From Candidatus Zambryskiibacteriota bacterium (GTDB taxonomy: Bacteria > Patescibacteriota > Minisyncoccia > Phycocordibacterales > Zambryskibacteraceae): a stretch of 57,165 nucleotides of DNA. The DNA lies in the NCBI GenBank assembly GCA_016180955.1, contig JACPAD010000005.1, positions 1 to 57,165 on the forward strand. Direction: 5' to 3'. The notes beneath the pieces are model-generated. The model was not told the origin of the DNA. It did no database searches and saw only the letters and a program-made list of their open reading frames with translations. Every line of letters starts with the position of its first letter. The first letter of the stretch is position 1. Position numbers and translations under genes: made by a program. Shown here one piece after another: positions 2,233-45,476 of this stretch.

Positions 2233-3202
2233 AATTATACTCATAGTCCTCATTCTTCTCGGCATTGGAGCTTTTTGGTATTTCGGGAAAAATAATCAGA
2301 GTGTAAATTCTCAAATAGATTTGTTAAACACCGATTCACCAAAAGAAACTGCCTTTCAAAATAAAGGGTTAAATACTAATACAGCTAAAGCTTCTATACC
2401 TCTTGAAAAAGTTCTGGATGGAGGCCCAGGCAAGGATGGGATACCAGCTCTCATTAATCCTAAATTCATAAGCATAAAAGAAGCAGAGAAAAATATTGAA
2501 GATGATATGGATGGATTAGTCGTCTCCATTGGTAATTCGGTAAAATTCTACCCATACAACATTATGGTCTGGCACGAAATAGTAAATGATGTTGTTGGCG
2601 GTAAACCACTTGCAATCACTTTCTGCCCTTTGTGCGGATCGGCTATAGTTTTTGAAACAACTGATCAATTTGGAGTGTCGGGGAAACTTTATGAATCTAA
2701 CCTCTTGATGTACGACAAGAAAACCGAATCTCTATGGTCGCAATCTATAGGAACTGCTGTTGTTGGAGACAGAACTGGAGAAAAATTAACTGTCTATCCG
2801 TCTCAAGTGCTCTCTTTCAAGACATTCAAGGGGAAATGGCCAAGTGGCTTAGTAATGAGCACAGATACGGGCTTTAACAGAAATTATGAGCTATATCCTT
2901 ATAGAGATTACAACAATAATGATGATGTCTACTTTCCGATTTCAATAAAAGATAGTCGTTTCCCCGCAAAGGAAATTATGTATGTAGTCAATGCCTATAA
3001 TCACTCTGTGGCCTTCCCAGTAAAGCAGTTGGGTGAATCACCCGTATCAGTTGATGTGGGCGGCAATAAGGTCACGGGAGCGATAATTGAGGGAGAAATT
3101 GTTGTAAAAGAGGCATCAGGAAAAATCCTTCCTGGGTATCATGAAATGTGGTTCTCTTGGGTAATTCATCATCAAGAAGATGGAGTTGTTTGGAAAAAAT
3201 AA
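2216..3202 (+). CDS. DUF3179 family protein
   Basis: N-terminal TM; GGPGKDGIPAL, WHEIVND, TFCPLCGS, SGKLYESNLLMYD, SLWSQ motifs. Confidence 0.85.
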   Translation: MNTQVKIILIVLILLGIGAFWYFGKNNQSVNSQIDLLNTDSPKETAFQNKGLNTNTAKASIPLEKVLDGGPGKDGIPALINPKFISIKEAEKNIEDDMDGLVVSIGNSVKFYPYNIMVWHEIVNDVVGGKPLAITFCPLCGSAIVFETTDQFGVSGKLYESNLLMYDKKTESLWSQSIGTAVVGDRTGEKLTVYPSQVLSFKTFKGKWPSGLVMSTDTGFNRNYELYPYRDYNNNDDVYFPISIKDSRFPAKEIMYVVNAYNHSVAFPVKQLGESPVSVDVGGNKVTGAIIEGEIVVKEASGKILPGYHEMWFSWVIHHQEDGVVWKK

Positions 3203-3267
3203 TATGGATAAATATAAAGATATGCACTAAAATTAGTGGATGCGCTTATTAATTAATTATTAAAATT

Positions 3268-3648
3268 ATGTTTACACAACTTCTACAATATAACGACGTC
3301 GGCTTGCTTCTTTTGCGGATCGCTGTCGCAAGCATCTTCCTCTACCACGGCTTACCAAAGCTCTCAAGGTCCAAAGAGATGAGCCAAATGATGGGGATGC
3401 CGGCAGGTATGATATTTATGCTCGGCATAGTAGAAACTCTCGCTTCTCTGGGTGTAGTTTTTGGAGTCTATACTCAACTATCAGCATTACTCCTCGCCAT
3501 TGTGATGATTGGAGCCATGGGTATGAAGATGACGAAATGGAATGTGCCGTTCTCGGCAGTGGATAAAACCGGTTGGGAGTTTGATTTTATCCTGCTATTC
3601 GCGAGTATCGCCATTCTGCTTAATGGCGGAGGGTCTATTGGCTTATAA
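3268..3648 (+). CDS. DoxX family membrane protein
   Basis: LLLLRIAVASIFLYHGLPKL and GWEFDFILL, 4 TM. Confidence 0.85.
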   Translation: MFTQLLQYNDVGLLLLRIAVASIFLYHGLPKLSRSKEMSQMMGMPAGMIFMLGIVETLASLGVVFGVYTQLSALLLAIVMIGAMGMKMTKWNVPFSAVDKTGWEFDFILLFASIAILLNGGGSIGL

Positions 3649-3686
3649 GAAGGTTCGCAATTAAGAATTGTAATTAATTAAATACT

Positions 3687-3869
3687 ATGGATACAATGCA
3701 AAAAGAAGAAAAGAAGTGTATGAAGTGTGGAGGTGAGACGAGGGGGTATAAATGTGATATGTGCGGGGCTGAAGCAGACAAACACGATGCAAACCATTCC
3801 TGCGGAGGAGACCATTGTGTTGCGAAATGTGTGGGTTGCAATGAATCAGAGACCAAGTGTAGTTGTTAA
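3687..3869 (+). CDS. Small Cys/His-rich metallothionein- or zinc-ribbon-like protein
   Basis: 60 aa with 10 Cys (CxxC x3, CxxxxC, CxC) and 3 His; last gene of the ArsR operon. Confidence 0.65.
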   Translation: MDTMQKEEKKCMKCGGETRGYKCDMCGAEADKHDANHSCGGDHCVAKCVGCNESETKCSC

Positions 3870-4030
3870 TAGTAAAAGAGTGGAAGATCATGTACACCCG
3901 GGAAACCCGGAGTTAGATTACAATCACATAATAGATGGTATTTTCATCGGCACACTCCACCCCTCTTTGGATAGACAGCACTAGGACGACCGGCTGCGAG
4001 ACTCACAAGAAAATAAAGTAAGATAAAGGC

Positions 4031-6088
4031 ATGAAGCTTGAGGGCAAACTGACTGATATTTTCCGCATTCTGCCGGCGCAGGAGAAAGCACTTGAGCGCC
4101 TTGGAATTACCAGTGTTAAAGATTTACTCTACCACTTCCCCCACTATTATGCCGACACGGCTGAAGCAAGGAGTATTGCTAATCTGGAAGCAGGCACCGC
4201 CGCCGTAATCTTCGGCAAAATTTCTGGTTTAAAAATTAAGAAAGCTTTTCGCAAAAAGATTCCTATGGCCGAAGGGATAGTTACAGACGCGACCGGTTCT
4301 GTAAAAATTGTCTGGTTCCACCAGCCTTATCTTGCCAAAATGCTCGATGAGGGCGCCTATGTTCGAGTAGAAGGCAAATATTCGGAGAGAGGATTTTCTA
4401 ATCCCAAGATAGAATCCGTTCCCACTCTCTTTTCCAAAAATAAAACTCATTCTCTCTACCCGATTTATCCCGAAACACGCGGGGTCACTTCAAATTGGAT
4501 TTATCACAAGATCCAGCAAATTTTGCCCAAGACCGAATTTGAGGACCCAATACCCCAAGAGATTTTGAAAAAGTATAATCTCCCCTCCTTAAAAACTGCC
4601 CTGGTCTGGATCCATATGCCCAAAAGAATCCAAGATGCCGAGGCGGCGCGCAAGCGCTTTGCTTTCGAAGAAATCTTTTTCATACAGTTAGAAAAGCAGA
4701 TAGTACGGCAGAAATTCAGGGAGCAGAGAGCTTTTGTGATAGAAAAAAGTTACAAAGATGTTGAGAATTTTATAAAAAATTTCTCCTTTCAGGCCACGGG
4801 GGCGCAGAAAAGAGCAATTGAAGCAATTCTCGGAGATTTTAAAAAAGGTTATCCAATGTCAAGACTTTTAGAAGGAGACGTCGGTTCTGGCAAAACTGCC
4901 GTAGCGGCGGTGGCAACATATGCTGTAGTCACACATAAGTTACAAGTTGCCTATATGGCGCCAACGGAAATTCTTGCTCGCCAGCATTTTGAATCGTTTA
5001 TAAAGTATTTCTCCCATCTACCGATTCAGATTGCGCTCATCACAGGGAGCGGCTGTCTCAAGTTTCCCTCCAAAGTAAATCCGAAGAGCTTCACAAATAT
5101 TTCTCGCTCTCAACTTCTTAAGTGGGTGGCTAACGGCGAAATTGCTGTGCTTATCGGCACCCACGCTTTAATTCAGAAATCTGTGAAGTTTAAACACTTG
5201 GCACTCGCTATTGTTGACGAACAGCACCGCTTTGGAACAGCGCAAAGGCAGCAATTGGTCAGTAAAGATGGAGTAACCCCGCATCTTCTCTCTATGACCG
5301 CCACTCCTATTCCTCGTACGCTCGCTCTCACTCTCTATGGCGATCTTGACCTTACGCTTCTTGATGAGATGCCTCTCGGCAGAAAAAAAATTATTACAGA
5401 AATCATCACGCCCGAGAATAGGTCGTTGGCCTATTCTCGCATCAAAGAAGAACTGGAAGCCGGCCGGCAACTATACGTCATCTGCCCGCGCATTAATGAA
5501 CCAGATCCAACTAAAGAATTGGCGGTTCTTGCCAAGTCAGTAAAGAAGGAAGCAGAGAGACTAAAAAACGAAGTCTTTCAAGAATATAAGATTGCTATTC
5601 TTCACTCCAAAATGAAGCCAGTTGAGAAAGAAAGGGTCATGAAAGATTTCCAAGAACATAAAACTGATATCTTAGTTGCCACTTCCGTTGTCGAAGTTGG
5701 AGTCAATGTAGAGAATGCCTCGCTCATTATTATTGAAGGCGCGGAGCGCTTTGGCTTGGCGCAGCTCCACCAATTGCGCGGCCGCGTACTTCGCGGCACA
5801 CACCAGCCGTACTGCTTCGTCTTCTCTGAACATAAGTCTGATAAAACCTTGGAACGCTTGAAAGCCTTGACGACAGCAAAAAATGGTTTCGAATTAGCGG
5901 AATTCGACCTAACACAGCGCGGAGCGGGTGCCCTGTCAGGCACCAAACAATGGGGCATCTCTGATCTCGGCATGGAAGCCATCAAAAATTTGAAGATGGT
6001 CGAAGCGGCCCGATCGGAAGCGCAGAAAATTACTGAAGAGGGCCTGACCTTATCTGGATACACGCCCAAAAAGATTCATTTTGAGTGA
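4031..6088 (+). CDS. recG: ATP-dependent DNA helicase RecG
   Basis: RLLEGDVGSGKT, DEQHRFG, MTATPIPRTL, AERFGLAQLHQLRGRV. Confidence 0.95.
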   Translation: MKLEGKLTDIFRILPAQEKALERLGITSVKDLLYHFPHYYADTAEARSIANLEAGTAAVIFGKISGLKIKKAFRKKIPMAEGIVTDATGSVKIVWFHQPYLAKMLDEGAYVRVEGKYSERGFSNPKIESVPTLFSKNKTHSLYPIYPETRGVTSNWIYHKIQQILPKTEFEDPIPQEILKKYNLPSLKTALVWIHMPKRIQDAEAARKRFAFEEIFFIQLEKQIVRQKFREQRAFVIEKSYKDVENFIKNFSFQATGAQKRAIEAILGDFKKGYPMSRLLEGDVGSGKTAVAAVATYAVVTHKLQVAYMAPTEILARQHFESFIKYFSHLPIQIALITGSGCLKFPSKVNPKSFTNISRSQLLKWVANGEIAVLIGTHALIQKSVKFKHLALAIVDEQHRFGTAQRQQLVSKDGVTPHLLSMTATPIPRTLALTLYGDLDLTLLDEMPLGRKKIITEIITPENRSLAYSRIKEELEAGRQLYVICPRINEPDPTKELAVLAKSVKKEAERLKNEVFQEYKIAILHSKMKPVEKERVMKDFQEHKTDILVATSVVEVGVNVENASLIIIEGAERFGLAQLHQLRGRVLRGTHQPYCFVFSEHKSDKTLERLKALTTAKNGFELAEFDLTQRGAGALSGTKQWGISDLGMEAIKNLKMVEAARSEAQKITEEGLTLSGYTPKKIHFE

Positions 6089-6857: not shown

Positions 6858-6929
6858 CCACCCTTAGCTCAACGGTAGAGCAGTCGCCTTATACGCGATT
6901 GGTTCGGGGTTCGAATCCCTGAGGGTGGA
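6858..6929 (+). tRNA. tRNA-Ile with UAU anticodon
   Basis: Cloverleaf: acceptor CCACCCT/AGGGTGG, D arm GCTC/GAGC, anticodon arm GTCGC-CTTATAC-GCGAT (TAT at 6890-6892), T loop TTCGAAT, discriminator A; CCA not encoded. Confidence 0.92.
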
Positions 6930-10849: not shown

Positions 10850-11250
10850 GGGGGTGTCAGTTTTGACACGAGACATTCTCGATACGTGCAAACGGAGCCA
10901 GAATAACTCCTTAAACTATTCTAAAAATTTAAGTGCTAACTCTATAGTTGCACGGGCAAAGTCAATTGTTTCTCCGTATTTTACGGCGAACGACTTTGTT
11001 TTCGCTTACGCTCGAGCCTAAAACTCGTCTAAGCGAACTTCTATCTCTCTGCCGTCCGGCACAGTTTGATAGATGCTTTATCTGCGGGACTGTAATTCCG
11101 ATACTGCTCTTATCGGGACCAAACTCAGAGCTTTGATTTCTGGATGTTTTGTCTAACTTAAAGTCCGGAGATCGAGAATTAAAGTTAGACTAAGCTTGTA
11201 GACCCGTATCGCGTATCCTCATGGACAGGAGTTCAACCTCCTCACCTCCA
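10850..11250 (+). ncRNA. ssrA: tmRNA
   Basis: 5' GGGGGTG pairs with 3' CACCTCC-A, T-arm AGGAG-TTCAAC-CTCCT, next to smpB; probable tag frame 10935-11021 (ANSIVARAKSIVSPYFTANDFVFAYARA*). Confidence 0.9.
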
Positions 11251-11258
11251 CTAGTAAC

Positions 11259-17834: not shown

Positions 17835-18601
17835 GAAGTTAGTATTATATTTCCTTTTTCGGTAATGGCAACTGTGTGCTCGAAGTGGGCGCTCCGGGAA
17901 CCGTCTTTAGTCTTGATGGTATAACCGTCGGGAGAAATCTTTATTTCCCCACTGCCGACATTCACCATCGGCTCGATGGCAAGCACCATGCCTGCCACTA
18001 ATTTTTCTCCCTTTCCCGCTCTCCCCGCATTGGGCACCAACGGCTCTTCGTGCACTTTGTGCCCTACGCCATGTCCCGCAAGATCTTTGGCAAGAGAGAA
18101 CGGCGTGGCAGAAACCACTTTACTTATAGCGGCGCCAATGTCGCCTATTGTATTACCAGGCTTGGCGGCTTCGATTCCTTTCTCCAAAGCTAGACGTGTT
18201 ATCTCTATAAGCTTCCGTCCTTCGTCGTCGACTGCGCCACACAGTATGGTAATAGCACTATCGGTAATAAGCCCATTGTGAATAAGACCGAGGTCTATCG
18301 AGACGATATCGCCGTCTCTTAATATTCTCTCGGCTTCGTTCGGAATGCCGTGGACAATTTCATCGTTTATGGAAATACAAAGCGCCGCAGGATACGGCCG
18401 CTTGGCGCCGGCCGGCTGATAACCCAAGAAAGCCGCTCTATCTCCGCCTTCTTTGATAAGCCGCAGGGCCTCTTCTTCAAGAATAAGCGTGGAGAGACCG
18501 GGTTTGACCATCCCCGCCAAGACACCGAGTATCTCGGCGTGTCTCCTGCCTCCTTTGCGCATAATCTCTATTTCTTTCTCACTCTTAAGAGTTATAGTCA
18601 T
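17831..18601 (-). CDS. map: Methionine aminopeptidase type I
   Basis: CISINDEIVHGIP, DIVSIDLG, GHGVG, AIEPM, AHFEHT. Confidence 0.96.
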   Translation of the reverse strand: MTITLKSEKEIEIMRKGGRRHAEILGVLAGMVKPGLSTLILEEEALRLIKEGGDRAAFLGYQPAGAKRPYPAALCISINDEIVHGIPNEAERILRDGDIVSIDLGLIHNGLITDSAITILCGAVDDEGRKLIEITRLALEKGIEAAKPGNTIGDIGAAISKVVSATPFSLAKDLAGHGVGHKVHEEPLVPNAGRAGKGEKLVAGMVLAIEPMVNVGSGEIKISPDGYTIKTKDGSRSAHFEHTVAITEKGNIILTS

Positions 18602-19187
18602 ATGCGGCAACGATATCAGAGTGAACTTTTTCTATCGGCTGTTCGCCGTCAATCTCGATGAAGCGATACAGGGAGTTGGTCTTGAAGTATTCGATGGCCG
18701 GCCAGGTATCGGCTTCGAACCAATCCAGACGCTTATTAATTTTGAGAAGCGTCCTATCGTCTGCTCGGCCGCGGCCGAGCAGACGCTCCTCGGCCCACTT
18801 ATGCCCTACCTTTAGATGGATGACTGTCGATTTCTCTCTCTTGTAAAACTGAAGAGCGGTGGAGAGAAGCACCGCTTCGGAGTGAGAGCGCGGTGCACCG
18901 TCAAAGACAAGATGCATGTCTGGCAGAAGCTCTTCTACAAGCACGCTAGCCCACATGAAGCAGGCCAGAAAATCCGGCTGGCGTTCATCCTTGTTATAAA
19001 TTTCTTTCGACAGCTTGGAGGAAAAGCTGTCGCCCCTGACAAAGTTCCTGAAACGTTCTCCCGTCTCGACGTAGAGAATATGCCGCTGCTTCTCATCGTG
19101 ACGCGCAATGCGATTCTTTAAAAGGTCCGCTTGCGTCCCCTTGCCGCAACCGGAGCGACCAATGAAAATAACGGTGTGAAGCATCAT
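18585..19187 (-). CDS. adk: Adenylate kinase (short form)
   Basis: GRSGCGKGTQA P-loop, FDGAPR, IDGEQPIE.V; canonical position before map. Confidence 0.88.
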   Translation of the reverse strand: MMLHTVIFIGRSGCGKGTQADLLKNRIARHDEKQRHILYVETGERFRNFVRGDSFSSKLSKEIYNKDERQPDFLACFMWASVLVEELLPDMHLVFDGAPRSHSEAVLLSTALQFYKREKSTVIHLKVGHKWAEERLLGRGRADDRTLLKINKRLDWFEADTWPAIEYFKTNSLYRFIEIDGEQPIEKVHSDIVAAYDYNS

Positions 19188-19193
19188 CTCTAA

Positions 19194-20156
19194 TTATAGA
19201 CCAGAATTAATTTTTTTAACTAATTTATAAGCATTCCCCCACTTCAGCATTCCTTGATACGAAGCAGTCGACTTCTGTGAAATATTCTTCAGCATCCTTC
19301 TCTTAGCCACCGTTCTCAAAACTCTATGGTCTGGGAAATGCACCCAGCCAAGAAAGTCTACTCCGGAAGAAAGGGTTTTGATAAATACTTTGTCTGGGTG
19401 AAGCTTCAGTTTAAGTTCACTCTGTAAGAAATGTACGATATATCGTATAAATACCTCTAGCTCTGATTTGTTTTGGGAGAAGAACACGAAGTCGTCAGCA
19501 TAGCGGATGTAATGCTTGGCTTTTAGTTTGTGCTTCACAAACTGGTCGAACTCGTTCATGTAGATATTGACCAAGAGCTGGGAGGTGAGGTTGCCAAGTG
19601 GCAGACCTTTGCCTGGAGCGGTGTGGAAACTTTCAATGATTTGGAATAAGAGCCAGTTTATATTTTCATCAGGAATGTATTTTATAACGATATATCGTAG
19701 TAAATTGTGGTCGATAGAGGCGAAGAATTTTTTAATGTCACATTTCAAAACCCAGCATTGCTTTGTGTTGTTCTTGGAGACTTTGTGTGAGAAAGACTCA
19801 AATCTCTCCATTGCTTTGTGCGTGCCTTTGTTCAAGCGACAGGAATAGGAGTCGGAAATAAACTTCTTATCGAAGTACAGATAGATGATTCGATGGATAG
19901 CGTGATGCAAAAGCCTGTCTCGCACAGAAGCTTTGTGAATATTCCTTGGCTTAGGGTCTGAGATGTTGAAGGCAGAATAACTACTATGCCGATAGGTCTT
20001 GTTTAACAAACCCAAATGAAGACTATAAATATTTTCTGAAAGATTTTCAGAGAACTCTGCCACATCTTTGCGCTTTCTCTTGCCTTTAAGAAACTCCACC
20101 CAAGCGTCAAAAAGATTTTCCAAAGATATGATACGCTCATACATATGACTGAGCAT
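19194..20156 (-). CDS. DGR reverse transcriptase 1
   Basis: KPRNIHKASVRDRLLHHAI, DIKKFF, GLPLGNLTSQ, YIRYADDF, GVDFLGW; 320 aa with no maturase X or endonuclease domain. Confidence 0.95.
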   Translation of the reverse strand: MLSHMYERIISLENLFDAWVEFLKGKRKRKDVAEFSENLSENIYSLHLGLLNKTYRHSSYSAFNISDPKPRNIHKASVRDRLLHHAIHRIIYLYFDKKFISDSYSCRLNKGTHKAMERFESFSHKVSKNNTKQCWVLKCDIKKFFASIDHNLLRYIVIKYIPDENINWLLFQIIESFHTAPGKGLPLGNLTSQLLVNIYMNEFDQFVKHKLKAKHYIRYADDFVFFSQNKSELEVFIRYIVHFLQSELKLKLHPDKVFIKTLSSGVDFLGWVHFPDHRVLRTVAKRRMLKNISQKSTASYQGMLKWGNAYKLVKKINSGL

Positions 20157-20531
20157 AGCAATTTACCCCCCCCCGCAAAAGCACCGTCGGTGCTTTTTAA
20201 GGCAAAGGAGACATACTCGTATTGGCTAAAGCTTTACCGAAAAATTGCTAAGCCCGAACGCTTTGGTATTGGAGAAAAGATAGATATTCTGTTTCTGGAA
20301 ATCTTGGAATTAATGCACTCCAGCCGTTATGCTCCTGTTTCTGAAAAACTGCCGTACTTGGAAAAAACTATAGGGAAAATAGATAAAATTAAATTCTTTC
20401 TGGAAATCTCTTGGGAAAATGAATTAATGAGTAGCGGAGAATACGCTCTGATACTTGAAAGACTTGAGGGCATGGGTCGGGAGCTGGGCGGCTGGAAGAA
20501 AGGAATAGTAAACAAAAACCCCATGAGATAG
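20145..20531 (+). CDS. avd: DGR accessory variability determinant (Avd-like four-helix bundle), antisense to TR/RT
   Basis: KPERFGIGEKID...LE...GRELGGW; overlaps the RT1 start head-to-head; C9 tract 20166-20174 encodes PPP. Confidence 0.88.
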   Translation: MTEHSNLPPPAKAPSVLFKAKETYSYWLKLYRKIAKPERFGIGEKIDILFLEILELMHSSRYAPVSEKLPYLEKTIGKIDKIKFFLEISWENELMSSGEYALILERLEGMGRELGGWKKGIVNKNPMR

Positions 20532-20551
20532 CATTTCTATATCTCACGGGG
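20519..20551 (-). promoter_or_regulatory. Conserved hairpin 3' of TR1 (spacer element)
   Basis: CCCCATGAGATA...TATCTCACGGGG; near-identical to 44309-44341 with compensatory changes. Confidence 0.75.
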
Positions 20552-20560
20552 AAAATTCAC

Positions 20561-20671
20561 AGTTTCGAGAAACCACCTGATTGCCAGCGTTCCACCTGTT
20601 CGGGTTCGTCACGGAGTTAGCGTTGACGTTCCAGCCGCCGTTGTCGGCGTTCCAGTTCGCGTTCACGGCCC
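20561..20671 (-). repeat. DGR1 template repeat (TR1)
   Basis: AAC-rich on the minus strand; 14 mismatches versus VR1, 13 of them at TR adenines. Confidence 0.95.
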
Positions 20672-20825
20672 AGAGAAGCTTCGTGCGAAATATCGCCCAT
20701 GCCACTGCCTCTAGATTCACCGGCTAGCGAATTTCAAAGCTGTATCTGATTCGGAGTCCTGCTCCTTAATATTTCACACCAACTATTTCTTTTTTTTGAT
20801 ACCGAATATCGGTATTCATCTATCA

Positions 20826-20869
20826 CTCCAAACCTTAGTCTGGAATGCCAATAGATTATTTAAATTATA
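20826..20869 (-). promoter_or_regulatory. TR1 RNA promoter and conserved 5' leader motif
   Basis: Minus-strand TATAAT (20864-20869) and AATAAT (20855-20860), then GACTAAGGTTTGGAG (20826-20840), shared with DGR2. Confidence 0.6.
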
Positions 20870-20871
20870 AC

Positions 20872-20904
20872 AAAAAGAGCGCCCCGATGTGAATCGAAGC
20901 GCCC
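20872..20904 (-). terminator. Terminator after DGR1 target
   Basis: Minus strand GGGCGCTTCGAT-TCAC-ATCGGGGCGCTC-TTTTT (G-U containing 12-bp stem plus U tract). Confidence 0.7.
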
Positions 20905-20951
20905 GTGACCTCCTTTCAGAGTATCTTCCACCTGAGGCGGAGTCAAAGGGT

Positions 20952-21448
20952 CTAGTTGCGAGAAACCACCCGATAGCCAGCGCTCCACCTGTTCGGGCTC
21001 GCCACGGAGTCAGCGCGGACGTGACAGCCGCCGTCGTCGGCGTTCCAGCCCGCGTTCACGGCCCGCGGTTTGCTGCGAGGAACGCTCGGAACTGGCTCGC
21101 GCTCGTCTCGGCCTTGTCGCCGAGTTCAGCCATGATGGGAGCGTCGAGCGAGGCTTCTTCGAGCTTACAAACTGCGAGCTCGACTTCTTCCGTCGCCGTC
21201 ACTTCGAGGCTGTAGAACTGGTTCTCGAAGTTCGAGCCCGTGAGTTTGACTCCCGCTTCCGCGAAGTATTCCTTGGAAGTGGTAACCGCCGGCTCTGCCG
21301 CGACTTTCACGGTGCGGAGGAGAGTGAGAATCGTCTCGAAGACAATCTTGCCCTGCCCGCCGATGAAGCGAAGGAAGTTGTCCCAACCGCCCATGCGGTT
21401 GATGCATGCTTCCGTTTGTCCACTGGTTACGTCTGGATACTTAGCCAT
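20952..21448 (-). pseudogene. DGR1 target protein, frameshifted at the VR 5' border
   Basis: The 130-aa ORF stops at TGA 21056-21058; the VR-encoded C-terminus is in a different frame ending at TAG 20952; GAGGAG SD upstream. Confidence 0.85.
20954..21064 (-). repeat. DGR1 variable repeat (VR1)
   Basis: 111-bp copy of TR1; encodes AVNAGWNADDGGCHVRADSVASPNRWSAGYRVVSRN*. Confidence 0.95.
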
Positions 21449-21544
21449 GTCTGCTCCTCTTCGGCTGAAAGCCGAGAGCTTCCCTCTGCCCGAGGTTATG
21501 GGGGCCTGAAAACGGGATGTTTCCAGGGCTTGTTATCTTTTTAC

Positions 21545-21573
21545 ATCATACACCTAAACACATATAAAGTCAA
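21545..21573 (-). promoter_or_regulatory. sigma70 promoter of DGR1 target
   Basis: TTGACT-17-TATGAT. Confidence 0.75.
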
Positions 21574-21609
21574 GCTTTTGTTCATTAAATGGCTTAAAAC
21601 AAGAGTTTA

Positions 21610-22881
21610 TTAATATTCTCGGGCGGAAACTTGGGCGTCGATTTTTTTAATAAGATCGATGACAACGGAAACTACGATGAGAAGCGCCGTACCACCGATG
21701 GCAAGAGATTGAATGCCGGTAAGTGAGCGCAGAATGAGCGGCAAAATGGCGATAAGACCGAGGAAAAGCGCGCCAACCAGAGTGAGCCGCGTGAGCACCC
21801 GCGAGATATAGTCAGCCGTTGAGATGCCGGGGCGTACGCCGGGGATAAAAGCGCCAGATTTCTGCAAATTGGTCGAGATGTTGTCCGGGTCGAAAGTGAC
21901 CGCAGTATAAAAGTAGGTAAAGAGCACTACCAAGACGAAGTAGGCAGTAGTGTAGAACCAATTATTGGCGAGGAGGTCCAGAGCAAAAGTCGCCAAAGAG
22001 CTTATTGAGGCGATGGCCGACTGGGCTAAAAACTGAAAAATCATTTGCGGGAACAGAAGTATTGACAGTGCGAAAATAATCGGGATGACTCCGGCCTGAT
22101 TGACCCGCAGGGGAAGATAGGTGGAGATGCCGCCAAAAGCCCGGCCGCCACGGACCTGCTTGGCGTAAGTGATAGGGATGGGTCGCTCCGCTTCCGTCAC
22201 CACCACCACGCCGAAAGTGACCAGAAGCGCTATGGCCAGTCCGGCGATATAGACTGGTATTTGCGAAGGGTCATAGGTCAAGACAGTCTGACTTACGGTC
22301 GTCGGCAGCTGGGCCACAATGCCGGCAAAAATGATGAGGGAAACGCCATTCCCCACTCCAAACTCGGTGATAAGCTCGCCTAACCACATGAGGAGCACAG
22401 AGCCAGCAACGATGACAGTGATGTCGACGGCAAGCGTTCCGAATGTCAGCTGTCCGAGCACTCCTTGTCCCTGCAGGAGCTTGATGAAGGCGTAGCCTTG
22501 AACGATGGCGAGCGGCACGGTCAAGATTCTCGAGTATTGAGAGAAGCGACGTCGGCCCGCCTCGCCCTCTTCTTGATACATTGCTTTAAGCTTGGGCGAC
22601 ATTACCGTCATAAGCTGCATGATGATGGAAGCGGTGATGTAAGGGCCGACTCCGAGCATTACGACAGAAAGATTGGAAAGCCCTCCGCCCGAGAAAAGAT
22701 TCAAAAGATTGAGAAATTCCGAACCAGAGAGCAGACTCTCGAGCCGGAGAGCGTCAATGCCGGGAATGGGAATGGCGGCCAGAACGCGCGTAACGACAAG
22801 AAGGCCCGTGACAAAGAGAATGCGCCTGCGAAGCACTTCGTCAGCAAGGATGAGTCTTAATTTTTCACCGAATTTAGACAT
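21610..22881 (-). CDS. secY: Preprotein translocase SecY
   Basis: SVVMLGVGPYITASIIMQL, GVGNGVSLIIFAGI, AGVIPIIFA, FIPGVRPG, GGTALLIVV. Confidence 0.98.
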   Translation of the reverse strand: MSKFGEKLRLILADEVLRRRILFVTGLLVVTRVLAAIPIPGIDALRLESLLSGSEFLNLLNLFSGGGLSNLSVVMLGVGPYITASIIMQLMTVMSPKLKAMYQEEGEAGRRRFSQYSRILTVPLAIVQGYAFIKLLQGQGVLGQLTFGTLAVDITVIVAGSVLLMWLGELITEFGVGNGVSLIIFAGIVAQLPTTVSQTVLTYDPSQIPVYIAGLAIALLVTFGVVVVTEAERPIPITYAKQVRGGRAFGGISTYLPLRVNQAGVIPIIFALSILLFPQMIFQFLAQSAIASISSLATFALDLLANNWFYTTAYFVLVVLFTYFYTAVTFDPDNISTNLQKSGAFIPGVRPGISTADYISRVLTRLTLVGALFLGLIAILPLILRSLTGIQSLAIGGTALLIVVSVVIDLIKKIDAQVSAREY

Positions 22882-42525: not shown

Positions 42526-42973
42526 TATATAAATCGATAGTTAGTCCGTCGGCGAAGCTGGTGGCAATCTCGTCAGAGCGTTCGTTAGCTTTGTCTCCAT
42601 TGTGTCCTGCTACATATTTCCATTCAATCTGCTGACCTTCGGTAACCAGAAGAAGCATTTGCCATAAATCTTTATTTAAAACCTGCTTTTTCCCCGCAGT
42701 TTTCCAGCCTTTTTTCTGCCAATTCTTGACCCAAAGCGTGATACCCTTCATGACATATTCAGAATCTGTATTGACTTGTATTTCTGAAAATTGAAAATTG
42801 TTAATTGCAAATTCAAGCGAGCGTATCACAGCTGTCAATTCCATGCGATTGTTGGTCGTGTGAACTTCATCCCCGCCTATCTCCATCACTCTCTCTTCGC
42901 TCGCGATAATCCCTGCCCATCCTCCCGGTCCGGGATTCCCCCTCGCCGCCCCGTCTGTGTAGATGGTTACCAT
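42494..42973 (-). CDS. rnhA: Ribonuclease HI
   Basis: YTDGAARGNPGPGG, TTNNRMELTA, TDSEY, VAGH....NERSD. Confidence 0.96.
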   Translation of the reverse strand: MVTIYTDGAARGNPGPGGWAGIIASEERVMEIGGDEVHTTNNRMELTAVIRSLEFAINNFQFSEIQVNTDSEYVMKGITLWVKNWQKKGWKTAGKKQVLNKDLWQMLLLVTEGQQIEWKYVAGHNGDKANERSDEIATSFADGLTIDLYNGPRNSYRYL

Positions 42974-43967
42974 TTGTAAATTATATCATCTACAGATTTC
43001 CTTATTTTGTAAGTATTCCCGTGTTTCAACATTCCTAAATACGAAACCAGCGATTCGGAAGAAAATTTTTCACTCAATCTTTTAAACATTCTTCTTTTTG
43101 TCGATGTTCTCAACACTCTATGGCCAGGGAAATACACCCAACCCAGAAAATCCACTCCGGAGGATAAAGTTTTTATAAAGACCTTGTCTGGATGAAAAGA
43201 AAGTTTGAGCTTGTTTGCTAGAAACTTTTCAAGAGCAGTGAGTAAAAGTGTTAAATACTGGCGGTCGCTGGTAAAAAAGACGAAATCATCAGCGTAACGT
43301 ATGTAATACTTTATTTTGAGATTATGTTTCGCGAACTGGTCAAATTCATTCATGTAGATATTGACTAAAAGCTGGGAAGTGAGGTTGCCAAGAGGCAAGC
43401 CTTTGCCAGGCACAGAATGGAAACTTTCTATTATCTGGGTTATAAGCCAATTAACATCTTCATCTGGAATGTATTTTGTAACGATATATCGTAGTGAATT
43501 GTGGTCGATAGTGGCGAAGAATTTCTTGATATCACACTTAAGTATCCAGCATTGCTTGGTGTTGTTCTTGGAGACTTTGCGGGAGAAAGACTTAAATTTC
43601 TCCATGGCTTTATGCGTACCTTTGTTTAGTCGGCAAGAGTAGGAATCGAAAATAAACTTCTTATCGAAGTAGGGATAAAGAATTCTATAGATAGCATGGT
43701 GCAAAAGCCTGTCCCGGACGGAAGCTTTGTGGATATTCCTAGGCTTGGGATCGGAGATGTTGAAAGTGTGGTAAGCGGAGTGCTTATATGTCTTATTTTT
43801 CAAATCTTCGTGTAGAGAAATAATGTTATCCATCAAGTTTCTCTGGAAAAGCTGGACATCTCTTCTCTTTCTCTTGCCATTCAGGAATTCCTGCCAAGCT
43901 TCGAGAAGATTTTCGAGCGAGATGATATCATCGTATGTATGAATACACCTTTTAAAGCCCCCCCCAA
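42967..43967 (-). CDS. DGR reverse transcriptase 2 (true start upstream of the ORF-track start)
   Basis: YIRYADDF intact; the frame is open upstream through HTYDDIISLENLLEAW; TTG 43967 is in frame only with G9 (G8 here), otherwise only CTG 43980 or ATT 43944 are available. Confidence 0.9.
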
Positions 43968-43973
43968 CGGATT

Positions 43974-44321
43974 TTGCCAGTCTTTGTTTATCTCAAGGAG
44001 TTGTATATTATCTGGCATCTCAAGTTTTATAAATTCCCGAAGAATTCGCGATTCTCAATAGGTATAAAGATTGACTCTTTGTTCGTGGAGACAATAGAAG
44101 AGGTAGCTCTGGCCAGTTTTACGCAAGATTCAGAAAAAATGGCGCATATCAAACAAGCTCTAAGTCTAACAGATACCTTGAAGATATTTCTACAAATCGC
44201 ATGGGAATTGAAACTTCTCGAAGTAAAGCATTATGCGGAAATATCAGAGAAAATGGATGCTGTGGGGAAAATGCTGGGTGGATGGTACGGACAAACTTTC
44301 AAACAAAACCACGTGAGATAG
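43974..44321 (+). CDS. avd: DGR Avd-like protein 2, antisense to TR/RT
   Basis: FPKNSRFSIGIKID, LQIAWEL, VGKMLGGW; TTG start as assembled, ATG 43939 in frame with C9. Confidence 0.87.
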   Translation: MPVFVYLKELYIIWHLKFYKFPKNSRFSIGIKIDSLFVETIEEVALASFTQDSEKMAHIKQALSLTDTLKIFLQIAWELKLLEVKHYAEISEKMDAVGKMLGGWYGQTFKQNHVR

Positions 44322-44341: not shown

Positions 44342-44350
44342 AAATAAACA

Positions 44351-44487
44351 TATTTGCGGAGACGAAACACGACCTCGTTCTCAAGATTCCACTTGTCATC
44401 CGGATTCGTTCAGTTGGTGTTGAGCCACGTCTTGCCGTCATCGTTCCGGTTGAGTTTGAACACGTACGGATTGCCGTCGGAATCGGT
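44351..44487 (-). repeat. DGR2 template repeat (TR2)
   Basis: 15 mismatches versus VR2, 13 at TR adenines; contains an in-frame TGA at 44410-44412. Confidence 0.95.
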
Positions 44488-44615
44488 TGTGTGCATTAAT
44501 CCGCCAAAGCCACTGCCCTTCAAATGTTCGATAGGCTGAATCTTATCCGTGATCGTAATCACTTAGAGAAATGCACCAAGTTTGTTTATTTTTTAGTTAT
44601 TTTATAATCACTCCG

Positions 44616-44649
44616 CTCCAAACCTTGGTCAGAAACGCTCTCGATTATA
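44616..44649 (-). promoter_or_regulatory. TR2 RNA promoter and conserved 5' leader motif
   Basis: Minus-strand TATAAT (44644-44649), then GACCAAGGTTTGGAG (44616-44630). Confidence 0.65.
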
Positions 44650-44720
44650 AAATACTGGATTCGGCAGCAGGAAACCTGAGTCGTCCGCATATTCGCCTAG
44701 TACCGAAATAATTTTCATAC

Positions 44721-44751
44721 AAAAACGGCGTGTGCACAAGTGCACACGCCG
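44721..44751 (-). terminator. Terminator after DGR2 target
   Basis: CGGCGTGTGCA-CTTG-TGCACACGCCG-TTTTT. Confidence 0.8.
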
Positions 44752-44807
44752 GTAATTCAAGTGATTCAAGGGACCGAAGCCTTAACCGAAGTCCGAAGAA
44801 CCAAAAC

Positions 44808-45476
44808 CTACTTGCGGAGACGAAACACGACCTCGTTCTCAAGATTCCACCGGTCATCCGGATTCGTTCAGCTGGCGTTGAGCCACGTCTTGCCGTCATC
44901 GAACCGGTGGAGTAGGAACACGTCCGGATAGCCGAAGGAAGCGGTGATCTGCTTCATGGCCGTCCAGCAGACGGTTCCCTTCGGCTGATCCTTCCATTCC
45001 CGACGGAGAGCGGGCCCATCGCCAGGTTCGCAGAGTGCGTGGCCAAGTTCTTCGATCCGCTTCCAGAGTTCGCGGGTCGTCGGCGGTTTGGTGAAGCCGA
45101 GGTCGCGGACCGAGGACTTGCCGAACCTGACGGTCTCCTTATTGCCCGGCTTCCACGCGTCCTTCCCCATGATGTTCCGTGAGTACTCGGAGGCGAACAT
45201 GCCGTTCGCTTCGATCTCCGCGACGAGCTCATCCTTGGACTTGCCACCGACCTCGATCTCGAGGAAGACCGGGAACACCGGCCCTTTCTGCGAGAACTGG
45301 CGGATGAGTTCGCGGAGTGCCGGCGCGACCGCCGGATTCTCGTTGAAGTACTGACCGCAGTCCTCATCGAGAGCGACGGCATTGTACGCGTCGCGGAAGA
45401 GATCGGTTGCCTGTCGACCCTTGCGGCTATCAGCCGTGAGACCAGACGCTTTCAACGTTTTCGACGTCGACATCAT
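44808..45476 (-). CDS. DGR2 target protein, prematurely stopped at TGA 44868-44870 inside the VR
   Basis: AAGGA SD before ATG 45476; 202 aa to the TGA; the frame continues TNPDDRWNLENEVVFRLRK* to TAG 44808. Confidence 0.88.
44809..44945 (-). repeat. DGR2 variable repeat (VR2)
   Basis: Copy of TR2 at offset +458. Confidence 0.95.

Follow-up and report, generated by a model that had tools for sequence, protein, structure and literature searches.

The conserved leader of diversity-generating retroelements in Patescibacteria belongs to a structured template RNA that may be a permuted form of the BPP-1 RNA

A 57,165-nt stretch of contig JACPAD010000005.1 of a Candidatus Zambryskiibacteriota bacterium (referred to here as the window, meaning the whole stretch that was analysed) is part of a 488-kb, 7-contig genome of the Patescibacteria, or candidate phyla radiation (CPR), and carries two diversity-generating retroelement (DGR) cassettes, both on the minus strand. 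A repeat search placed the template repeat (TR) and the variable repeat (VR) of cassette 1 at 20561–20671 and 20954–21064 (minus strand; 111 nt, 87% identity) and those of cassette 2 at 44346–44494 and 44804–44952 (minus strand; 149 nt, 87% identity). The mismatches between the repeats fall at TR adenines in 13 of 14 cases in cassette 1 and in 13 of 16 in cassette 2. The reverse transcriptase (RT) genes are on the minus strand at 19194–20156 (RT1; Pfam RVT_1, E 1e-25) and 42967–43836 (RT2; RVT_1, E 4e-25), and each cassette has an avd gene on the plus strand, antisense to the TR RNA (Avd1, 20145–20531; Avd2, 43974–44321). With Pfam bAvd (PF22296; cut-off, 40 bits), Avd2 scored above the cut-off (50.7 bits) and Avd1 below it (24.9 bits). 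RT1 and RT2 are 74% identical, whereas Avd1 and Avd2 are only 35% identical. Having an RVT_1-type RT, an adenine-biased TR/VR pair with the VR at the 3′ end of the target gene, and Avd, both cassettes are DGRs. Their gene order, in which the TR lies upstream of a reverse-strand avd that is followed by the RT, is the architecture designated B3, TR-(avd)-RT, by Wu et al. 2018 (PMC5758913).

An earlier reading of the window, made from the sequence only, had noticed three elements shared by the two cassettes and interpreted them as a conserved non-coding scaffold of the DGR RNA. All three were found on the minus strand. Motif 1 (GACTAAGGTTTGGAG at 20840–20826 and GACCAAGGTTTGGAG at 44630–44616) had no other close match in the 488-kb genome, motif 2 (GGCAGTGGC) occurred at 20709–20701 and 44517–44509, and motif 3 was a 33-nt hairpin (20551–20519 and 44341–44309) in which 30 of 33 positions agreed between the copies and which likewise had no other close genomic match. 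The base changes described for the hairpin were also observed: one is a compensatory C-G to A-U change, and two positions form G-U pairs in one copy, which is possible only in RNA of the minus strand, the strand of the TR. In cassette 1, where TR/VR homology ends at 20561, the hairpin lies 9 nt 3′ of the TR, as had been claimed. Given the RT and Avd identities stated above, these blocks are above background for a comparison of two sequences. When 31–43 related loci were examined, the conserved scaffold was upheld, but the motifs did not stand out from the neighboring sequence (mean conservation 0.76 for motif 1 versus 0.79 for all columns, and 0.77 versus 0.70 for motif 2), because the whole leader, 150–230 nt upstream of the TR, is conserved RNA; the stem halves within the motifs covary instead of staying fixed. 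The appearance of three islands arose because only two cassettes, with different leader subtypes, had been compared. Near-exact searches of 80 related loci, which recovered the leader motif in approximately 15–20 loci, GGCAGTGGC in approximately 8 and the hairpin in none, first suggested that the motifs are poorly conserved; this view was rejected, since the variable parts proved to be covarying stems in the alignments. All three motifs are pieces of one large structured non-coding RNA that carries the TR.

The relatives were collected by an RT-based scan with one genome per species, which yielded more than 528; the best 80 were kept, and all of these were from Patescibacteria, with RTs 62–78% identical. 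In 65 of these 80 RT loci, the order was VR, approximately 350 nt, TR, antisense Avd and RT, and nearly all TR/VR mismatches lay at TR adenines. The region from the target-gene terminator to the TR was conserved throughout, and compensatory changes were evident in the alignments. For the structure test, sequences were aligned using MAFFT without structural input, and pairs were counted for a structure read from the sequences; as controls, the pairing partners were slid and 500 shuffles were performed. Nine helices had covariation support. In the alignment of the core plus tail (A3; 43 loci, TR removed), 88.2% of the cells were paired, compared with 39–55% for slid partners, the covariation score was 0.63 versus 0.13–0.22, and none of the 500 shuffles reached the observed values. 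In the alignment of the 5′ module (A5; majority class, 31 loci), 97.1% of the cells were paired (31–53% for slid partners) with a covariation score of 0.71, and again 0 of 500 shuffles reached these values. A protein-coding leader was considered and set aside, because pairing of 88–97% with double changes is the signature of RNA structure.

Two long-range helices, H1 and H2, are the elements likeliest to set the start and stop of cDNA synthesis, and neither had been noticed in the earlier comparison of the two cassettes. H1 is formed by an A-rich leader strand, located six nt before H2, and the approximately 9 nt between the TR and the post-TR hairpin (H5); the apparent 9-nt spacer between the TR and the hairpin is thus the 3′ strand of H1. 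In A3, 83.7% of the H1 cells were paired, with double-sided changes at seven of nine pairs. The corresponding values for the 12-bp H2, the 3′ strand of which ends just before the TR, were 95.9% and 10 of 12 pairs. The leader strand of H1 is separated from that of H2 by only a few nt, which leaves the TR as a loop between the two helices. Two hairpins are enclosed by H2, namely H3 (94.0% paired) and H4 (94.3%); the latter has the conserved loop GAGAGUAUUCAA and is followed by an invariant GUG. H5 showed 75.8% pairing, its stems being of varying length and poorly aligned. The H1 strands are AAAUGAAGA/UCUUCAUUU in most loci, AAAUAAACA/UGUUUAUUU in cassette 2 and locus L028, AACAAAGA/UCUUUGUU in L034, and AACGAAGA/UCUUCGUU in L044 and L068.

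In cassette 2, all elements of which are on the minus strand, the H1 5′ strand AAAUAAACA lies at 44591–44583, with a possible extension to 44577, and the 3′ strand UGUUUAUUU at 44350–44342. Both strands appear in the minimum-free-energy (MFE) fold and covary, and an inverted repeat is visible here, 15 nt of the H1 strand being 87% complementary to 44342–44356. Covariation also supports H2 (44576–44565 with 44502–44491; core domain 44485–44576), H3 (44562–44558 with 44553–44549) and H4 (44536–44532 with 44519–44515); the invariant GUG (44513–44511) falls within motif 2. In cassette 1, likewise on the minus strand, H1 was assigned using RNAduplex, base-by-base reading and family covariation, and consists of AAAA (20793–20790) and AUAGUU (20786–20781) on the 5′ side and AACUGU (20564–20559) and UUUU (20555–20552) on the 3′ side. 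H2 (20779–20768 with 20694–20683) closes the core domain 20683–20779 and is predicted by the MFE fold. Within it, H3 (20765–20762 with 20756–20753) is followed by the conserved single strand GAAUCAGAUACA, and H4 (20740–20736 with 20711–20707, from family covariation) bears an extra inner hairpin; the GUG at 20705–20703 is again within motif 2. The sequence-only reading had therefore located motif 2 correctly, just before the TR, but its nature is that of the covarying 3′ arm of H4 (GGC), a purine and the invariant GUG. A local hairpin, AUACCGA-UAU-UCGGUAU (20799–20815, minus strand), was observed in the sequence and the MFE fold of cassette 1 just before the A-run; it is restricted to the short-leader subtype, with analogous hairpins in L015 and L017.

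The 5′ module is composed of a 3-bp helix (Pa), hairpin A, and a helix (Pb) that encloses hairpin B. Both hairpins carry the loop GAYYAMGGUUU, so that this hairpin is present twice in cassette 2 and in most relatives. Among the 31 loci, the hairpin B homologues were 98.9% paired, with double-sided changes at all six pairs. Cassette 2 has the full module (44601–44705, minus strand), in which the A5 alignment places Pa at 44697–44695 with 44665–44663, the stem of hairpin A at 44688–44684 with 44671–44667 (loop CGACUCAGGUUU), the perfectly paired and covarying strands of Pb at 44651–44644 (UUUAUAAU) and 44608–44601 (AUUAUAAA), and the stem of hairpin B, whose loop contains GACCAAGGUU, at 44637–44632 with 44619–44614. 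Cassette 1 represents a short subtype, together with L015, L017 and L046, which has hairpin B only and the promoter directly upstream; the stem is at 20847–20841 with 20830–20824 and the loop GACUAAGGUU at 20840–20831 (minus strand). In both cassettes hairpin B contains motif 1. Motif 1 had been taken as the start of the leader behind a −10-like box, but it is actually the apical loop plus the 3′ arm of hairpin B, and the presumed −10 box of cassette 2, TATAAT (44649–44644), is the 5′ strand of the covarying helix Pb inside the RNA. This TATAAT aligns with CCAUACAU/GUGUAUG in relatives. As it is a helix strand, the assignment of the motifs as promoter plus leader start of cassette 2 was rejected.

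A conserved promoter-like sequence, TGnTAnAAT, is located approximately 70 nt upstream of the cassette 2 TATAAT in the family alignment. The aligned sequence in cassette 2 is TG...GAAAAT (approximately 44722–44711, minus strand), 6–7 nt before GGUAGUAGG, and the transcription start is predicted near 44705; a consensus scan detected the target-gene terminator at 44751–44726. In cassette 1, the same scan found the target-gene terminator at 20904–20877 (minus strand; 12 pairs plus a T-run), overlapped by a putative TR-RNA promoter, TTCACA-18 nt-TATAAT, at 20893–20864 (11 of 12 consensus matches, TG present), with a predicted start near 20857. This layout of terminator and promoter is repeated in L015, L017 and L046. 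In majority-class leaders (e.g., L066, 2190–2240; A5 columns 113–127), the H1 strand UGAAGA could also pair with an upstream ACUUCA (ACUUCA-AAAAA-UGAAGA); this alternative pairing could represent an intermediate of folding, or a switch in competition with H1.

At the other end of the RNA, a hairpin plus U-run (at least four U's in the six nt after the hairpin) was found 3′ of the TR in 66 of 67 loci, with a median stem of 9 bp, a median loop of 4 nt and a median distance of 12 nt from the end of TR/VR identity. The hairpins of the window, present in the MFE folds, have a 12-bp stem and a 9-nt loop and are followed by the U-runs UUUUUGUUU (20518–20510, minus strand) and UUUUGUUUG (44308–44300, minus strand). 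The consensus terminator scan missed them, because its loop limit was 8 nt, and they were checked by eye, folding and a separate hairpin scan. The G+C-containing stem and the direct U-run on the transcribed strand are those of an intrinsic terminator. In cassette 1 the avd stop codon (20529–20531, plus strand) is inside the 3′ arm of the hairpin, and the C-terminal tail of Avd (often KQNSP..GEK) is the antisense reading of the hairpin and U-run. As to the conservation of this element, what is kept is a hairpin with a U-run; the hairpin sequence is peculiar to this genome, none of the 80 related loci having a credible match. Nor is it likely to be the priming site that it had been taken for, as it is terminator-shaped and by position matches the stem-loop that binds Avd in phage BPP-1. 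By analogy, we propose that the 3′ hairpin may be both an intrinsic terminator and the equivalent of the Avd-binding stem-loop. The two hairpins of the window are nearly identical to each other (30 of 33 positions) and unlike those of the 80 relatives, despite the low identity of the Avd proteins and the different leader subtypes, which suggests local gene conversion or a trans-acting partner common to both.

TR/VR identity ends at CG(C/A)AA, a few nt 5′ of H1. By visual inspection, approximately 18 loci, including cassette 1 (20562–20567 versus 20955–20960), have CGAAAC in the TR and always CGCAAC in the VR; the difference is synonymous, CGA and CGC both encoding Arg. In most other loci, the TR has CGCAAC and the VR CGCAAG. 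These fixed differences suggest that the CGA/CGC position is never copied and that the cDNA would start at or just before the invariant G. The arrangement looks like an asymmetry of the IMH/IMH* type (IMH, initiation of mutagenic homing). The cDNA start could not be fixed from the 3′-most mutated adenine, since the last 15 nt or so of the TRs are almost adenine-free, and it is bounded only by the fixed differences at CG(C/A)AA(C/G).

A search of the CPR with a covariance model, which the sequence-only reading had suggested as a check, found the RNA well beyond the window. The model (R1) describes the leader core (112 positions, 22 pairs). It matched 72 of the 80 RT loci once each, upstream of the RT and on the same strand, and 31 of these were outside the training set. 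In its own genome, R1 matched only the two cassettes (cassette 1, 20677–20799, 77.3 bits, E 3e-14; cassette 2, 44485–44596, 90.5 bits, E 3e-17). Among 401 evenly sampled genomes of the phylum, 57 had a match, representing 46 of 320 genera, and Avd or RT adjoined in 10 of 12 examined matches (RTs 51–60% identical). The RT clade itself was present in 93 of the 401 genomes, and the RT-positive, R1-negative genomes mostly had more distant RTs. With Rfam 15, no relevant match was obtained in either cassette up to E 10, only chance-level matches on terminator hairpins (MIR5148, TEG147, TCV_H4 and sau-6072), and no DGR-RNA family reached its gathering score in the window; this RNA is described neither in Rfam 15 nor in the literature that we searched. 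We regard it as a genuine structured RNA that is widespread but absent from catalogues, and it is best described as a permuted form of the known DGR RNA.

The 3′ edge of this unit is delineated by an orphan copy (L092, 1340–1900, minus strand) in genome G177, which is 96% complete, contains no RT and has no avd adjacent to the locus. The orphan retains the target with an A-mutated VR, the promoter, the full leader, the TR, the H1 strand UCUUCAUUU, the hairpin and UUUUGUU, and is directly followed by ruvA. Conservation stops at the U-run, which marks where the functional unit ends on its 3′ side; this is in favor of a stand-alone, terminated RNA. Because the hairpin and U-run are retained here without avd, the U-run is not kept for the sake of Avd. 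Further orphan template-RNA units without adjacent Avd or RT were noted in L095 and in genome G161; the orphans are either remnants or RNAs served in trans.

A third DGR is present on contig C4 of the same genome (L098, 2800–4724), with VR at 2825–2943, TR at 3191–3309, antisense Avd at 3308–3709 and RT at 3654–4724. Its RT is 51% identical to RT2, and its gene order is that of the window cassettes. R1 failed to detect the leader of this DGR, even with filters off. Its MFE fold nevertheless contains an H1 (AAAAACU/AGUUUUU) just after the TR, a 2-nt gap, an 11-bp H2 with 4 nt between its 3′ strand and the TR, and a hairpin plus U-run. In this predicted fold, the likeness to the R1-type RNA is topological only.

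The best-characterized DGR RNA is that of BPP-1, in which the 3′ end of avd, the TR and a 140-nt spacer (Sp; Rfam motif RT-10) follow one another and cDNA is primed in cis (Handa et al. 2018, PMC6182149). In the BPP-1 ribonucleoprotein (Handa et al., bioRxiv 10.1101/2023.10.23.563531), spacer residues 47–56 pair with TR residues 117–129 to form the template:primer duplex, with priming from A56; two nt further on, residues 59–70 pair with an avd segment upstream of the TR, forming the ‘cPRT Stop’. There follow a short stem-loop, A-minor adenosines, a 13-nt single-stranded ‘Thumb Ring’ and a long RT-binding stem; the Avd pentamer has its binding site on an 11-bp stem-loop immediately 3′ of the TR. 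The CPR RNA resembles this arrangement in several respects. The TR is flanked by non-coding RNA, which is essential in BPP-1; a single continuous strand pairs first with the 3′ edge of the TR and, 2–6 nt further on, with the segment upstream of the TR, so that the TR is looped out; a stem-loop of 9–12 bp lies directly after the template strand; and after the stop strand, the order is H3 (a short hairpin), 12 A-rich unpaired nt (GAAUAAGAUACA) and H4 (a longer stem-loop). Unlike in BPP-1, the bridging strand and all RT-side elements are 5′ of the TR rather than 3′, the RNA ends at the hairpin plus U-run after the TR, no spacer separates the TR from the RT, avd is antisense, and there is an additional 5′ module with one or two GAYYAMGGUUU-loop hairpins. 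In the window, only about 9 nt, the hairpin and the U-run intervene between the TR and the antisense avd, and there is no 3′ spacer of the BPP-1 type. BPP-1 was the right comparison for the scaffold, except that the scaffold precedes the TR and does not, as had been supposed, occupy a spacer 3′ of the TR. The CPR order would result if the BPP-1 RNA were cut between the Avd stem-loop and the primer strand and its ends were joined.

In a survey by Handa et al. (bioRxiv 10.1101/2023.10.23.563531), Avd-binding stem-loops and cPRT Stop duplexes were predicted in 207 of 278 DGRs. The surveyed stem-loop (approximately 9 bp with a tetraloop, just downstream of the TR, CPR DGRs included) corresponds to the hairpin described here. 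The folding in that survey, however, was limited to 40 nt on the 5′ side and 100 nt on the 3′ side of the TR, and the 150–230-nt leader, H1 and the real H2 therefore fell outside it; in the CPR class, the 100 nt downstream of the TR are antisense avd. The window cassettes agree in gene order, in CPR occurrence and in their occasional proximity to ribosomal protein genes with the CPR DGRs of Wu et al. 2018 (PMC5758913) and Paul et al. 2017, as far as the portions of those papers available to us go; these portions describe genes, repeats and IMH-like ends, and no RNA structure upstream of the TR. With the retron msr-msd RNA the CPR RNA shares a stand-alone structure, a priming element 5′ of the template (as proposed here) and template ends held by long-range pairing, whereas it differs in that its RT is of the DGR clade and works with Avd, that its template is a protein-coding repeat copied into a target with adenine mutagenesis, and that we identified no msr-type structure or branching-G context.

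On balance, we favor, with moderate confidence, a stand-alone DGR RNA that extends from a promoter to a U-run and is a circular permutation of the BPP-1 RNA, with H1 as the primer duplex and H2 as the stop. An RNA of approximately 345 nt (cassette 1) or 400 nt (cassette 2) would be transcribed from its own promoter to the hairpin plus U-run. From 5′ to 3′, it would comprise one or two GAYYAMGGUUU-loop hairpins, the A-rich bridging strand, the H2-closed domain (with H3, H4, two conserved single strands and the invariant GUG), the TR, the H1 strand of approximately 9 nt and the terminal hairpin. H1, as the template:primer duplex, would place the 3′ edge of the TR in the RT active site, and a leader nucleotide at the 3′ end of H1 would serve as the cis primer for cDNA; H1 is correctly oriented for this, its leader strand pointing with its 3′ end toward the TR. 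H2 would be the counterpart of the ‘cPRT Stop’ and end cDNA synthesis at the 5′ edge of the TR, the H2-internal domain and the 5′ hairpins may hold the RT, and the terminal hairpin would terminate transcription and bind the Avd pentamer. A circular permutation fits the antisense orientation of avd.

Several observations weigh against this proposal. The assignment of primer and stop to H1 and H2 is taken from topology, and neither sequence nor model similarity to the BPP-1 spacer (Rfam RT-10) was detected in the cassettes. H1 of cassette 1 is weak (4 + 6 bp around a 3 × 3 internal loop), weaker than those of the relatives, and is absent from the MFE fold. A possible extension of H1 toward H2 (pairs 16–139, 18–137, 19–136 and 20–135) consists of nearly invariant pairs, which covariation cannot confirm. 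The fixed TR/VR differences might have been selected as part of an IMH-like DNA signal instead of marking a limit of copying. It is conceivable, if unlikely, that the leader is a recruiting and clamping scaffold only, and that cDNA synthesis either starts de novo or is primed by the target DNA once nicked, as with group II introns, or by the 3′ terminus of the RNA itself. The structure and its linkage to TR and RT would fit such a scaffold equally well; moreover, the H1 core ends at a pair that is not invariant (14–141; AU 28, UA 4, CG 3, GC 2), and the RNA ends in a free U-run next to the A-rich leader strand. However, in BPP-1, the sole DGR studied, the same two-duplex arrangement places the primer, DGR RTs are described in the literature as lacking endonuclease and DNA-binding domains, and the leader strand of H1 is oriented as priming requires, its 3′ end facing the 3′ edge of the TR.

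The role of the terminal hairpin is a separate matter. We consider it somewhat improbable, though a serious contender, that the hairpin is an intrinsic terminator and nothing else, which separates the TR RNA from the convergent avd, while Avd binds elsewhere, for instance at the GAYYAMGGUUU loops. Such a role would agree with the presence of a U-run after the stem in 66 of 67 loci as well as in the avd-less orphan L092, and with a stem sequence that varies freely. It would leave unexplained the position 3′ of the H1 template strand and the typical size (9 bp plus a tetraloop), both of which match the Avd stem-loop of BPP-1, as well as the match to the post-TR stem-loops predicted by Handa et al. 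(207 of 278 DGRs); the near-identical, atypical hairpins of the window cassettes, despite their 35% Avd identity, also hint at more than termination. The 5′ position of the leader in the transcript and its conserved loops might instead be those of a regulatory element that sets the amount of TR RNA outside the reverse-transcription machinery, be it a stability element or an attenuator of the riboswitch-like or protein-binding kind, and the alternative UGAAGA/ACUUCA pairing in most relatives could act as its switch. We regard this as very unlikely, since an upstream regulator gives no reason for H1 and H2 to pair across the TR to both of its edges, no downstream ORF is there to be regulated, and no Rfam riboswitch matched. 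Least credible of all is that the shared motifs are functionless leftovers of common ancestry or of gene conversion between the two cassettes. The hairpins, 30/33 identical and unlike those of the 80 relatives, do suggest an exchange at that spot, but a structure with compensatory changes is kept in 60–70 loci (RTs 51–78% identical) and in 46 of the 320 sampled genera.

A broader statement of the permutation proposal would be that the B3 DGRs of Patescibacteria, found in approximately 1/7 to 1/4 of the sampled genomes, use a BPP-1-permuted RNA in which primer strand, stop strand and RT-binding domain are 5′ of the TR, and that this RNA is leader-primed and a self-contained gene, so that orphan templates perhaps work in trans; to this we give slightly less than even credence. 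CPR bacteria hold a very large share of natural DGRs. In the literature that we found, a detailed account of how the RNA controls reverse transcription in DGRs exists for just one phage element, and in the CPR the antisense avd between TR and RT leaves no BPP-1-like spacer to prime and stop cDNA synthesis. The covariation-supported model names elements that can be mutated in reconstituted systems (H1, H2, the conserved loops, the invariant GUG and the terminal hairpin), and the start of DNA copying in a very common class of DGR thereby becomes testable. The covariance model finds DGR template RNAs, including orphan ones, without needing an RT. The permuted order of RNA elements is also a natural test of the two-duplex clamp principle, and the compact RNA-plus-RT design is possibly of interest for the engineering of targeted mutagenesis. 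If the RNA is indeed a self-contained gene, template RNAs can exist, and perhaps work, away from the RT gene, as in L092 and L095, being served in trans.

Some additional features were noted in the relatives and in the window. One RT locus (L007, RT at 3001–3798) has 3 kb of upstream sequence, yet neither an R1 match nor a TR/VR pair was found there; it may be a degraded or rearranged cassette. In many genomes, the RT matched in two halves (approximately residues 1–140 and 141–285) that are about 50–160 nt apart within one open frame (e.g., G075:C3:31896-32846 and G399:C5:39545-40495), which points to a probable in-frame insertion at a fixed point of the RT. The only Rfam families that reached their gathering scores in the window were tmRNA (10850–11253, 103.8 bits) and a tRNA (6858–6929). 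Cassette 1 lies between secY (21610–22881) and adk (18585–19187), within the conserved row of ribosomal-protein (spc) genes (window positions 18585–22881); an association of CPR DGRs with ribosomal protein genes is noted in the portion of Wu et al. 2018 (PMC5758913) available to us.

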